A stretch of 64,000 nt of DNA from Nitrosopumilaceae archaeon (GTDB taxonomy: Archaea > Thermoproteota > Nitrososphaeria > Nitrososphaerales > Nitrosopumilaceae): contig OZ242376.1 in the NCBI GenBank assembly GCA_965209085.1, positions 96,001-160,000 on the forward strand, written 5' to 3'. The position numbers were made by a program, and so were the translations under genes. This document shows positions 33,950 to 62,692 of this stretch, piece after piece (positions within the stretch are counted from its first letter, which is position 1; the number at the start of each line of letters is the position of its first letter). The notes beneath the pieces were generated by a model. It was not told where the DNA came from. It ran no database searches and saw only the letters and a program-made list of their open reading frames with translations.

Positions 33950-34027
33950 CGATTATATGCATAATTGATCAAATTCACAATTTTTACGAATAAAAATGAC
34001 TGATTTGAATAATTATGCATACGATCT
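33950..34027. mobile_element. 78-bp palindromic mini-element related to the IS110 ends
   Basis: 33957-34020 is close to the reverse complement of 61649-61712; bounded by AAT on both sides (33947-33949, 34028-34030). Confidence 0.7.
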
Positions 34028-59154: not shown

Positions 59155-59721
59155 ATGGCAGACACAAAAATCACCATAAACTCGATCTATATGACTTTAC
59201 AGCGTGAGGCTGAGAATGATTCTATTCAGGAGCTTCCACGTAATTATTACCAGTCAGCATCAACGGTTTTAGGAACCATGGCGAAGGAAAAATATGATGG
59301 CATAGAAGGGATATTGAATACACGGTTTTTCACTATCGCATCAGAACTTGCAGCATTACTTTTGCACATAAGACTTGAAAAAGTATTAAACGATCCAAAT
59401 ACCGATAAAATAAATCTCTTAGACGTGGAAAAATTTATTCTAGATTCCAATACGGACATGAATGCCAAAAAAAACATGATTATAACTGGAGTGTTACATG
59501 GCAAATTCAAACTTCTTGAATCAATTGCCACTGCTCAGAAAACCAAACCCATGTTAATACGGTTTCTGCAGGATTCAGAACAAATTATTGGAGCAGACAT
59601 GGCAAAATACGGGCCGTTTAAGGCAGAAGATGTAGCTTCAGTTCCATATGATAACGCACAAGCATTTATTGGTCAAAAAATTGCTTCAAAAGTCATTATT
59701 GATGAAGACCAATCGAGCTGA
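59155..59721 (+). CDS. GINS complex subunit (Gins51-like)
   Basis: Helical A domain (R..K) plus B domain IIGADM..YGPF..EDVA..P..NA. Confidence 0.8.
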   Translation: MADTKITINSIYMTLQREAENDSIQELPRNYYQSASTVLGTMAKEKYDGIEGILNTRFFTIASELAALLLHIRLEKVLNDPNTDKINLLDVEKFILDSNTDMNAKKNMIITGVLHGKFKLLESIATAQKTKPMLIRFLQDSEQIIGADMAKYGPFKAEDVASVPYDNAQAFIGQKIASKVIIDEDQSS

Positions 59722-59736
59722 TGTTGCATATCTCAC

Positions 59737-60003
59737 ATTGACGTAGATGTAATTGATTTTCTTTTAATCACGATATATCCGGTCGCAGGTCTTCTTGGAA
59801 TTGAAATAATTTTTAGAATTGTAAAAGGATCTCAGTGGTTAAAATTATCAATACAAGGATTGCTCTCACTTGCTTTTGCAATTGCATATGTAGTTTTGAT
59901 TACAGCACATTGGCTCACAGCAATAGTTTTAATTGCGCTGGCTATAGCATTATTTTATCAGTCAAAAAGATCCTTGTTGCATCCTGGCAAATCTCCTTAC
60001 TAG
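59737..60003 (+). CDS. 3-TM membrane protein with apparent ATT start, missed by ORF track
   Basis: Frame (I/M)DVDVIDFLLITIYPVAG...AHWLTAIVLIALAIALFYQ...KSPY* fills the GINS-AN1 gap and overlaps the AN1 stop by 4 nt. Confidence 0.65.
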   Translation: MDVDVIDFLLITIYPVAGLLGIEIIFRIVKGSQWLKLSIQGLLSLAFAIAYVVLITAHWLTAIVLIALAIALFYQSKRSLLHPGKSPY

Positions 60004-60218
60004 TTGCGGCCAAAAATTCTACTCAAAAATCCTTTTTTTGGACCGCCGTCTCGAATTATTTTTTTTCCACCAAACTTTTTTGATCTGATTTGTGTTAATT
60101 TCACACAACGGTGATCCTCTGGCAACCTATGTTCTGTACAAAAGGGATCTTTACAGTAATTACACTCAAATGGCATATCGATCATATCTCCACAATACGC
60201 ACACGGTTTTTCAAGCAT
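60000..60218 (-). CDS. AN1-type zinc finger protein
   Basis: CAYC....MPFECNYC...FC.EHRLPE.H.C. Confidence 0.9.
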   Translation of the reverse strand: MLEKPCAYCGDMIDMPFECNYCKDPFCTEHRLPEDHRCVKLTQIRSKKFGGKKIIRDGGPKKGFLSRIFGRN

Positions 60219-60399
60219 ATGGTTTCATTTGAATAATCTGCCTATTAAACATCTAGACCATTTTGACGTATGAGGTCACGTCATGCCTAGAATTTATGCA
60301 ATAAATAGACCGTATCCATGTGAATACTTTTTAAAGGTTTCTTGCTTTTTTGTGTCATGCGGTATGGCTTTCGCTATGTGTCTGGTTCCAACCAAAAGA

Positions 60400-60515
60400 T
60401 AAAAGACATCTATCCATTCGGGATTTAATCCCACAACCATCTTCATCTACATGTTAAAGCTTACCGCAGTTATGCAGCCGGGGTAACATCCCCAAAGTCT
60501 AACCCGCGGTTTGTT
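60400..60515 (-). ncRNA. candidate bridge/seek RNA
   Basis: Two nested stem-loops holding exact matches to the target junction (60438-60446) and the element end (60495-60502); G.U pairs favour the minus strand. Confidence 0.55.
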
Positions 60516-60518
60516 GCT

Positions 60519-61640
60519 TTAACGATGATGTATTTCAAATTCACTCCTATCCTTTAGCATACGAAATATGATATCCAGCATCTTGGCCGCTGCTGCAACT
60601 TTGGCCTTGGATGATCCTCTCTTTTTTGCAAGACGCCGGTAAAATTCAGAAATGTTACTCTCTGATGCAAATCGGACATGTGTGGTAACAGCTTCCACCA
60701 ATGCCCACCGCATCATCCTGCTGCCTCTTTTTGTTATATGTCCGTGATGGACCACATCTGCTGAATTACGAACCGATGGGGCAAGACCCGCATATGATTT
60801 GAGTTGTTTTGGTTCAGAAAATCTCTCAACTCCATCAATCTCTGCTGCCAGTATCAATGAAATAAAATCACCTATGCCAGGTATTATCTTGAGCAACATT
60901 GCATCCTTGTTTGAACAGGATGCGTTGTGTACCTTTATGTTTGAGTCTGCAATTTTTGTATTAACGAATCCAATAGAATCCAAATATCCGTTTATACGGT
61001 AATCCTTTAGAGAACGCAGTTTTCTATTGTATGTAAGCGTAAATGTTGCTCCAAAGATCTTTATCCCTCCCTGTAATAAAATTCCATGTATTTTGTTTTT
61101 TAGAGTTGTCCTTGTCTTGACAAGACTGTCGCGATATCGTACAAGTTGCCGTTGTTCCACTATGTCCTTGTTTGAGACATGACAGAGGGATATGTATCCG
61201 CATCGTAACAGATCTGCAAGTGTTACAGCATCCCTCTTGTCGGTCTTTTTCTTGGATGCGGCGATGATTTTTGTCGCCCATGGATTTGACAATACGACAT
61301 TATAACCCATTTTATCTGTCATGTATCGATATAGACCGTACCATACGGATGAAGATTCCATTACGATTTTTGCATTTTCAGGTACGCTTGATCTGAAGAA
61401 TCGACTGATGGACTTGTTTTCATTTTCAATCCTCTCATTAAAAATCACTTTGGCTTTTTTATCCATCATTGCAACTTGAAGAAATTTCTTGTGAACGTCC
61501 ATTCCAACAAACATATTCTTCCCAGAATATGTGGTAATCTGTTTGTTTGCATTTGGATCTTTTTTAGATGATTTACGTTTCGGTGATACGGATCGTTTGA
61601 CATTCTTACAACCATCTGTGGTCTTAGAAGCTCTCTTCAC
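60519..61640 (-). CDS. IS110 family transposase/recombinase
   Basis: DEDD residues (GMDVHK, MESS, KTDKRDA), IPGIG, YAGLAP...SA, ARK-like AAKML; alternative start at 61514. Confidence 0.95.
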   Translation of the reverse strand: MKRASKTTDGCKNVKRSVSPKRKSSKKDPNANKQITTYSGKNMFVGMDVHKKFLQVAMMDKKAKVIFNERIENENKSISRFFRSSVPENAKIVMESSSVWYGLYRYMTDKMGYNVVLSNPWATKIIAASKKKTDKRDAVTLADLLRCGYISLCHVSNKDIVEQRQLVRYRDSLVKTRTTLKNKIHGILLQGGIKIFGATFTLTYNRKLRSLKDYRINGYLDSIGFVNTKIADSNIKVHNASCSNKDAMLLKIIPGIGDFISLILAAEIDGVERFSEPKQLKSYAGLAPSVRNSADVVHHGHITKRGSRMMRWALVEAVTTHVRFASESNISEFYRRLAKKRGSSKAKVAAAAKMLDIIFRMLKDRSEFEIHHR

Positions 61641-61772
61641 ATATGGTTATGCATAATCGTTCAAATTGGTCATTTTTATTCGTAAAAATTGTGAATTTGA
61701 CCCATTATGCATGAAGTCTAATGAAGATGTATGCATAAAATAACACGAGGTACTGACCTCATACATTTTGAC

Positions 61773-61853
61773 ACGTAAGTTTATGCTGTGCCTATAATTT
61801 ACACGAAAAATCAAGATCTAGGCACAAAATAAGACTGGGCGTTGACCTCATAC
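61773..61853. repeat. degenerate tandem copy of repeat family A
   Basis: TGCCTATAATTTAC...AAGATCTAGGCACAAAATA...TGACCTCATAC. Confidence 0.75.
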
Positions 61854-61948
61854 ATTTTGATAGAAATTGCATGCGTGGTCATTTTATATCTGATAATTCT
61901 AGGCGACATTATATCGTTATATCCAAATATGCCGTTATCACAGATAAT

Positions 61949-62692
61949 ATGATGTTAAAGGATAAAGTGGCAATAATAACCGGTGCAAGTAGCGGCATTG
62001 GACGAGCTACTGCCATCGCACTAGCCGGCCAGGGTTGTAAAGTGGCCATTGGAGCTAGAAGAACATCCAATCTTGAAAAACTACAAGATGAAATTGAAAA
62101 ATCCGGTGGACAGGCTTTTGCACAAAAGCTTGATGTTTCTGATAGACATAGCTGTGAATCATTTGTAAAAGAAGTTTTAAAAAAATGGAACGAAGTGGAC
62201 ATACTGGTAAACAATGCTGGTCTTATGCCGTTGAGTTTTTTTAAGAATTTAAAATATGACGAATGGGATCAAATGATCGACGTAAACATAAAAGGTGTTC
62301 TCTACTGTACCGGCGCGGTCATTAATCACATGAAATCCAAAAAATCTGGTCATATTGTAAATATTTCATCCGTTGCAGGAAGAATTGTTTTTCCTTCTGG
62401 CAGTGTTTATTGTGCTACAAAACATGCCGTAACCGCATTAAGCGAAGGACTTCGTCAGGAATTTAGCGCACGTTCGAACATACGTGTAACATGCATAGAA
62501 CCTGGTGTTGTGGCAACAGAACTAACCCACACTATAACCGATGAATCCTTGAAAGATTTTGTCGATAAAGCAAAAACCATGGAATCTCTTTCAGCCGATG
62601 ATATTGCAAAAGCAATTGTATATGCCGTGGATTCCCCTATGAATGTAAACGTAAACGAGATTCTCATAAGACCTACTACGCAGGAGCGTTAG
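61949..62692 (+). CDS. short-chain dehydrogenase/reductase
   Basis: TGASSGIG, NNAG, YCATK; start moved to MMLKDK. Confidence 0.93.
   Translation: MMLKDKVAIITGASSGIGRATAIALAGQGCKVAIGARRTSNLEKLQDEIEKSGGQAFAQKLDVSDRHSCESFVKEVLKKWNEVDILVNNAGLMPLSFFKNLKYDEWDQMIDVNIKGVLYCTGAVINHMKSKKSGHIVNISSVAGRIVFPSGSVYCATKHAVTALSEGLRQEFSARSNIRVTCIEPGVVATELTHTITDESLKDFVDKAKTMESLSADDIAKAIVYAVDSPMNVNVNEILIRPTTQER

Follow-up and report, generated by a model that had tools for sequence, protein, structure and literature searches.

An IS1111-like element of an ammonia-oxidising archaeon and its putative two-loop guide RNA, with guides that appear to match the terminal repeats of an IS5-like element and its MITE

Introduction

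Among described systems, the closest counterparts of the element analysed here are the IS1111 elements ISEc11, ISPa11 and ISKpn4 with their seekRNAs (Siddiquee et al. 2024, PMC11187229). As outlined in that work, the RNA is encoded in a long non-coding region downstream of tnp, a complement of the top strand lies 5' of a complement of the bottom strand with the two overlapping at the insertion point, close relatives are redirected by changes in their guides, and the targets are repeats or other mobile elements. The present locus resembles the IS1111 elements in each of these respects, and a variant of the GL-P----S motif described for them (PMC11187229) can be read in its ORF. A second point of reference is the bridge RNA of IS621, which according to the accounts in Durrant et al. 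2024 (PMC11208160) and Hiraizumi et al. 2026 (PMC13626964) has two loops with two guides each; these take opposite strands around a 2-nt core, the bottom strand being paired by the left guides and the top strand by the right ones (PMC11208160). The same arrangement is found here, as is the combination of RuvC-like DEDD and Tnp domains in the recombinase.

Two further cases bear comparison. ISPpu9 of Pseudomonas putida is, as presented in PMC12288879, likewise an IS110-family element that sits in repeats and has a small RNA gene downstream of tnp; it is bacterial and has extra solo copies of the RNA gene, whereas the solo RNA pieces seen here look like 5'-truncated copies. An earlier IS110-family case also homes to the terminal repeat of another transposon, with a different host and a different victim; in the present case the victim appears to be an IS5-like IS together with its MITEs, and the guide-target pairing can be read directly.

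IS110 recombinases are known from archaea: one survey gives a figure of 662 (10.1101/2024.06.21.599552), and haloarchaeal members are mentioned as listed in ISfinder (PMC11187229). A literature search at listing level, combining IS110 with the names of ammonia-oxidising archaea, returned no guide-RNA paper, and the one paper in it to name IS110, in a single place, was PMC3379541; the supplementary bridge-RNA lists of PMC11208160 and PMC11187229 may include archaeal relatives. Here we analyse an IS110-family element within a 64,000-nucleotide stretch of archaeal DNA (the window), for which an earlier note, made from the letters of the sequence, had proposed a bridge or seek RNA.

Results

The recombinase gene and its relatives

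The host genome is a 1.69-Mb single contig encoding archaeal AmoA, and the host is therefore an ammonia-oxidising archaeon. An intact ORF on the minus strand (61640-60519) encodes a 373-aa recombinase and begins with a GTG start codon within the left inverted repeat. Its product matches PF01548 at 7e-28 and PF02371 at 1e-21, has the N-terminal DEDD/RuvC-like domain and the C-terminal Tnp domain of IS110 recombinases, and scores 218.6 bits against the NCBIfam model NF033542, 'IS110 family RNA-guided transposase' (cut-off 140). The earlier description of the locus as an IS110-family, IS1111-like element of an ammonia-oxidising archaeon is borne out. ISCro4 and IS621 (8wt6, E 6e-6) are the relatives with solved structures in the PDB. 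At the putative catalytic D, E, D and D and the conserved Ser of the Tnp domain, pairwise alignment to ISCro4 gives the correspondences GmDV/GIDV, mE/ME, ktDkrDa/KTDAVDA and nSa/eSG, with residue roles taken from the literature, and the ORF carries the motif GLAPSVRNSA, an SA variant of the IS1111 motif GL-P----S(t)G.

The recombinase is 373 aa long, or 331 aa without an N-terminal extension (IS1111: 330-350 aa). In 40 of 42 distinct left ends, the GTG that occupies positions 10-12 of the left repeat shares the frame of the DEDD domain and reads into it without a stop, so that the 373-aa form with its basic 42-aa extension is probably real.

Homologous recombinases occur in 10 of 61 related genomes and in 41 of 401 genomes of the same family, the latter tally including the unpublished genome G251, whose sequence was left out of the analysis. 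The nearest plasmid-borne relatives are haloarchaeal, at ~36% identity. The genome of the window (G000) itself holds about nine long IS copies and many fragments, with 20 matches to the RNA model described below. At least seven 5'-truncated pieces in G000:C1 keep the RNA gene and the right end, for example 1681678-1682160, 556772-557250, 1642551-1642943 and 1168577-1168961, as well as 675613-675997, 728323-728601 and 959195-959473. A second IS lineage with ~57% protein identity is present in the same genome (G000:C1:666534-667795, 856512-857691 and 1172187-1173450). Its copies have a different target loop and the right target TACTGCGG..., one flank follows all three, and one of them sits within an IS5-like element.

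Nested insertions and the ends of the element

The earlier note had placed the left end of the element at 61719-61721 and had read ATGAAGATG as its target junction. Comparison with other genomic copies leads to a different reading of both. At many other places in the genome (e.g. g899213-899293), the sequences 60268-60306 and 61720-61765 adjoin one another, overlapping by 3 nt, so that 61719-60307 is an insertion into an older repeat. This insertion is composite: both of its tips are the ends of a ~90-bp palindromic MITE, for which we list 25 solo copies, each with a 3-nt A-N-T duplication. By comparison with these copies, the left part of the MITE that holds the IS ('U') occupies 61650-61719 and its right tip 60307-60312, both on the minus strand; the latter reads CGGTCT, which would be the right target of the IS. 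The MITE is flanked by an ATT duplication at 61720-61722, with its partner at 60304-60306 (no strand assigned). One half of the older repeat, at 61720-61765 (likewise without a strand), contains ATGAAGATG, and the other half lies at 60268-60306; ATGAAGATG is the site at which the MITE, and not the IS, entered the older repeat. The older repeat is ~85 bp long and occurs at many genomic places, a second copy adjoining at 61789-61860. The MITE is also found at 33957-34021 of the window and has a weak taY-ANT-Rta site preference.

The boundaries of the IS itself follow from the solo MITEs, which read ...GATTATGCA-TA-CGGTCT-ATT, where the window reads ...GATTATGCA-TA-ACCATATGTG...(IS)...CACATGGA-TA-CGGTCT-ATT. 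This places the IS proper at 61649-60313 and a TA at each of its junctions. Its inverted repeats measure 12 bp on the left (TAACCATATGTG, 61638-61649, minus strand) and 10 bp on the right (CACATGGATA, 60313-60322, minus strand); the first two bases of the former (61649-48) and the last two of the latter (60314-13) are the TA core. From these comparisons the element appears to be a 1.34-kb IS of IS1111-like layout, at about 61649-60313 and with core TA, and what had been taken for its left end is the end of the MITE.

Two other IS copies in the same genome, c4 and c5, occur without the left part of the MITE and directly abut full copies of an IS5-like element. This element (G000:C1:244429-245783, locus L132) is 1355 bp long, is present in more than 20 copies genome-wide, encodes a 384-aa DDE_Tnp_4/DDE_Tnp_1 transposase, makes an ATT duplication and has terminal repeats containing TTATGCATAA. 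The end sequences of the MITE are the terminal inverted repeats (TIRs) of the 1355-bp element, which is likely both the source from which the ~90-bp MITE derives and the chief victim of the IS110-family element.

A covarying RNA structure behind the recombinase gene

Directly 3' of the recombinase ORF, the minus strand at 60528-60398 matches a covariance model over its full length (1-130) with 103.9 bits (E 7e-24), and the 5' end of the RNA overlaps the stop codon TAA at 60521-60519. The same downstream architecture recurs behind the recombinase ORFs of relatives, and RNAalifold on 41 downstream sequences yields 22 pairs, 14 of them with compensatory change. The covariance model has 78 matches in 91 sources. 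In the resulting alignment, which was fitted to the model and comprises relatives of one family that are not independent, 93.0% of cells are paired, as against 35-44% when partners are slid by 1-3 columns; compensatory change on both sides is seen in 19 of 26 pairs, and 0 of 500 shuffles attain any of five measures. This covariation upholds the earlier proposal of a two-loop guide RNA downstream of the ORF, and we regard the bridge/seek-type RNA at about 60528-60398 of the minus strand as real on comparative grounds.

The structure comprises two domains on the minus strand. A putative target-binding domain (60453-60523) has an outer stem (60523-16/60460-53), a stem at 60509-05/60467-63 and an apical stem at 60493-90/60483-80; a putative donor-binding domain (60404-60448) has a basal stem at 60448-44/60408-04, in which covariation pairs AGAUG with UGUCU, and an apical stem at 60432-28/60424-20. 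The donor-domain helices (4 and 5) are 98% and 97% paired, and the weakest helix is the apical stem of loop 1, at 71%. The short strings from which the earlier note had built its stems are all present: ACAT (60406-09), ATGT (60451-54), GGGAT/ATCCC (60420-32) and CATCTTCAT (60438-46) in one loop, ACCGC (60463-67), GCGGT (60506-10) and GGGG/CCCC (60480-93) in the other, besides TATCCAT and TTATGCA. Of the proposed stems, the model recovers three (helices 2, 3 and 5), namely the ACCGC/GCGGT stem and the apical stem of each loop, the pairing of ACAT with ATGT has no comparative support, and the layout had missed the 8-bp outer stem formed by 60453-60460 and 60516-60523, which overlaps the stop codon.

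For the minus strand, single-sequence folding gave z scores of -1.78 and -1.87, and for the plus strand -2.08; with values of about -1.8 to -2.1 on either strand, it is not informative. The Rfam 15 covariance models gave no match at E<=1 over 59500-62500, and a search for RNA sequencing runs that contain the stretch yielded none. Within a sample of the phylum, 4 of 151 genomes have matches to our model, all of them in the family of the window (3 of 19 plus the genome of the window), and under strict filters 131 genomes from other families of the phylum gave none. A 50-aa minus-strand ORF (60294-60446) overlaps the guide RNA; the RNA-type covariation argues against its being coding.

Loop 1 as the variable, flank-matching loop

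Across relatives, loop 1 (the 5' loop, 60509-60463) is variable and loop 2 (the 3' loop, 60448-60404) nearly constant. The 5' side of loop 1 holds the candidate right-target guide (GGUUAGACUUU, 60494-60504, minus strand), the complement of the top-strand sequence that immediately follows the element on its 3' side. The candidate left-target guide (GGCUGCAUAACU, 60468-60479, minus strand) lies on the 3' side and equals top-strand TGCA, the TA core and AC, the last being the first two bases of the element. To score guides against sites, we used 70 distinct pairs with 44 distinct guides, taking the best of 12 registers in a 9-nt window; 4570 pairs of guides with sites of unrelated elements, treated alike with respect to register, served as controls. 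The right guide matched its flank at 8 or more of 9 positions in 40 of the 70 pairs (0.15% of controls) and at 7 or more in 54 (3.0% of controls), with 16 sites at 6 or fewer. In a single fixed register the signal is much weaker and bimodal (mean 4.79/10 versus 3.39), because the loop boundary shifts by 1-2 nt. For the left guide, identity over the six bases outside TA averages 3.44/6 against 1.28 in controls, falling from 95% at -1 and 76% at -2 to 22% at -6. Left-target recognition thus appears short, extending ~1-4 nt beyond TA.

The right guide of the window copy fits its own site, CGGTCTATT, only moderately, at 6 of 9 positions by Watson-Crick pairing, or at 8 of 10 by hand with two wobbles. 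As a guide, UUAGACUU (60502-60495) would have as its ideal site A-AAGTCTAA next to TGCA-TA; a better site for this guide, TGCATAAAGTCTAA, occurs once in the genome. On the matches across relatives, we assign loop 1 as the variable, target-binding loop; its target in this genome is the terminal repeat of the IS5-like element and of its ~90-bp MITE.

This assignment reverses the one made previously, in which the AAGTCTAA loop was the donor loop and the CATCTTCAT loop carried the target guide; covariation with target sites across homologues is carried by the former loop and not by the latter, where the segment in question is conserved in relatives whatever their flanks. The earlier note was right that AAGTCTAA stands at 60495-502 and is identical to 61714-21. 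The identity arises because the left terminal repeat of the MITE is an inverted copy of the real target at 60312-60304, and this 8-nt match is no chance event but a target guide meeting the inverted copy (left TIR) of its real target (right TIR). The 9-nt match between CATCTTCAT and ATGAAGATG, by comparison, is read as chance. A 9-mer shared with the RNA region is found in 3.0% of 200,000 random 40-nt genomic windows, or in 0.7% if it must abut a fixed junction, and matches of at least 8 nt occur within 120 nt at 7 of 67 distinct insertion sites, at scattered positions and on both strands. The complement of CAUCUUCAU (60446-60438) lies partly in the basal stem of the conserved donor loop and partly on the 5' side of that loop, and the DNA matching CATCTTCAT lies 80 nt from the left repeat of the IS, beyond the MITE, in the older repeat. 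The earlier note had been unable to find all four canonical guides; with the loops assigned as above and below, all four segments can be identified.

Guide changes among near-identical elements follow their flanks. In genome G376, three copies whose ORFs are 94.6-95.3% identical have three different guide pairs, each fitting its own flanks. Two copies in G001 are 99.3% identical, and their right guides differ exactly as their targets differ. In G000, window-type and c4-type copies, 97-98% identical, likewise differ in guide and target. Near-identical elements thus appear to be naturally re-aimed via changes in their guides.

Target DNA or terminal extensions

Five observations say that the sequences matched by loop 1 are target DNA and not terminal extensions of the IS. 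In the genome of the window they exist without interruption, as ends of the MITE and of the IS5-like element; 80 ends have the form GATTATGCATA+6+ANT (AACTCT 17, AGGTCT 15, CGGTCT 8, and others), and their tip variants fit ...GACUUU and ...GAGUUU, both of the guide variants present there. In genome G395, an unrelated ~110-bp MITE has the right-hand sequence as its end, which occurs in 34 distinct contexts, 30 uninterrupted and 4 occupied; 26 of the 30 uninterrupted ends (counted by eye) have TAA(C/T) directly before the motif, and the four occupied sites read ...CACATAGA-TA-A(C/T).... Copies with identical guides have differing, imperfectly matching flanks. One IS copy in G395 lies inside the RNA gene of another copy, exactly at the DNA of the left guide (L047:2691-2820, L096:901-1030). 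Finally, the strand geometry is that of IS621 under the target-DNA reading only. A further copy in G395 is joined at donor-guide DNA, which mimics the right repeat.

Loop 2 and the ends of the element

The 5' side of loop 2 contains a candidate donor guide (AAGAUGGUUGU, 60433-60443, minus strand) complementary to the top strand of the left repeat (A-TA-ACCAT), and the 3' side (60409-60419, minus strand) carries a 7-mer equal to that of the right inverted repeat (IRR). In 57 of 74 RNA matches, the 3'-side 7-mer equals the IRR 7-mer of the same element, in six variants, and most of the remainder differ at the last base only. On the 5' side, left repeat and loop change together, giving the compensatory sets ACCAT/AUGGU, ACTAT/AUAGU, ACCGT/ACGGU, GTCAT/AUGAC and ATCAT/AUGAU; in most relatives, this side pairs with only ~5 nt of the left repeat and leaves the core unpaired. 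Since loop 2 is conserved and covaries with the inverted repeats of its own element, we assign it as the probable donor-binding loop. A possible handshake guide was also considered: on the 3' side of loop 2, the two bases that follow the core were compared by eye with those that begin the right target, and the idea was dropped as no consistent match emerged.

A TATA-like box (TTTAAAAA, 60328-60335, minus strand) lies 12 nt upstream of CACAT and reads outward across the right end. The motif is present in 31 of 43 distinct right ends, at the same distance in 29 of 43. In the predicted circle junction, ...GGATA + ACCATATG..., the joined ends would place this box ~30 nt before the GTG and would form an archaeal promoter for a leaderless recombinase mRNA. 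At the left end, a box (AGATGGTTGT, 61608-61617, minus strand) is identical to the 5' side of loop 2. It lies ~35 nt in from the left end, in DNA that codes for the N-terminal extension, and is an inverted partner of the left repeat. Among 31 distinct elements, box and loop share identical 6-mers in 18, 5 of 6 bases in 10 and 4 of 6 in 3 (an eye count without a control); the 6-mers are of roughly a dozen different kinds, and the encoded residues change with them. We tentatively suggest, as a doubtful but specific proposal, that the left-end box is a third recognition or control site that covaries with the donor loop and acts alongside a junction-built TATA promoter with leaderless mRNA.

Discussion

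We consider it very probable that the structure downstream of the recombinase gene is the guide RNA of an IS1111-like element, with loop 1 addressing the target and loop 2 the donor. In the mechanism we propose, loop 1 would pair with DNA on both sides of the insertion point: its 5' side with the top strand on the right, and its 3' side with the bottom strand on the left, the latter across the TA core and two bases into the element. Loop 2 would bind the donor, both of its sides reaching the TA core. The RNA is predicted to be made, to bind the recombinase and to direct recombination via a circular intermediate.

The arrangement put forward in the earlier note runs the other way: a target loop at 60406-54, whose complement of CAUCUUCAU points to ATGAAGATG, a donor loop at 60463-510 pointing to 61714-21, and an element spanning 60304-61722. 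It accounts for the two exact matches, of 9 and 8 nt, found where the composite insertion meets its surroundings, and empty-site comparison does show 61719-60307 to be inserted relative to the older repeat. Yet the composite is nested, its two ends are common to 25 solo MITE copies, and c4 and c5 carry the IS without the left part of the MITE. The supposed target guide is moreover conserved despite unrelated flanks and lies partly in a covarying stem, no positional match is seen at the other 66 sites, a match of this kind arises by chance at a rate of 0.7-3%, and the supposed donor loop is the variable one that tracks the flanks; we therefore hold this arrangement to be very unlikely. About as little credence is due to the idea that the structure is a 3' UTR, a terminator or an mRNA-stability element of the recombinase gene, devoid of guide function. 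It adjoins the end of the ORF and overlaps its stop codon, it has no match in Rfam, and RNA production and protein binding are things we infer; but loop sequences, and not the stems alone, track the flanking DNA and the inverted repeats, and the recombinase family has been shown to use such RNAs.

Slightly less remote, though still improbable, is a reading in which loop 1 is the donor loop, the 5-10 nt outside the repeats are terminal extensions, and the MITE is an internal-deletion derivative of a long IS. IS1111 is described with 7-bp and 3-bp extensions beyond subterminal repeats (as set out in PMC11187229), the MITE ends equal the ends of the composite, and the match of each copy's loop 1 to its own flanks would also be given by co-evolving ends. 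Against this, the same ends are the TIRs of the independent 1355-bp IS5-like element with its own DDE transposase and more than 20 copies, the 'extensions' vary among 97-99% identical copies with identical guides, and in the second genome an unrelated MITE, found 30 times without the IS, has the right 'extension' as its TIR. Such a reading would also make the strand geometry opposite to that of IS621 and leave no variable loop for target choice. We dropped it because uninterrupted targets exist, the MITE has an independent IS5-like parent and loop 2 is conserved, and retain the assignment of loop 1 to the target and loop 2 to the donor.

By protein and RNA features, the element belongs to the IS110 family, and it appears to work like the IS1111-type seekRNA and IS110 bridge RNA systems. 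Two loops with two guides each, as in IS621-type RNAs, are found here, loop 1 on statistical evidence and loop 2 by covariation with the left and right inverted repeats. The target loop of IS621 is the 5' loop. Several traits set the present RNA apart from that of IS621: it lies in the right end of the element instead of the left, the order of guides within the loops is swapped, as Siddiquee et al. report for IS1111, the core is TA rather than CT as IS621 is described, and the inverted repeats are long. No Rfam or sequence similarity was found between the guide RNA and the IS621 bridge RNA.

The element also departs from textbook IS1111: terminal extensions are absent, the core is TA, the start codon lies within the repeat, and there is a left-end box. 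IS1111 elements have subterminal repeats of 11-13 bp with 7-bp and 3-bp extensions; here the uninterrupted targets leave no extension, and the repeats begin at the TA core, whereas those of IS1111 lie 7 or 3 bp inside (according to PMC11187229). Its host is archaeal, its recombinase is lengthened at the N terminus by 42 aa from a GTG within the repeat, and its left end contains a copy of one donor guide. Further, a conserved second loop matches the repeats, where the short seekRNA is described in PMC11187229 with target matches only. If the proposal for the left-end box held, it would be a role without description in bridge or seek systems; the box might offer the bottom strand to the donor loop as a second docking site, or might serve as a decoy, in DNA or RNA form, that balances excision against insertion.

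The known mechanism is unchanged by this element. What the comparison offers is a testable archaeal model of a bridge or seek RNA, with four putative guides, a TA core, exact ends and 44 natural guide variants. Tool builders may find in it a recombinase and RNA that are compact, come from a new lineage and use a TA core. For the annotation of such loci, it illustrates that single-copy junction matches can mislead guide assignment when insertions are nested. An RNA-guided element that appears to home to the repeats and MITEs of another transposon family would have implications for policing or parasitism among the mobile elements of small genomes.
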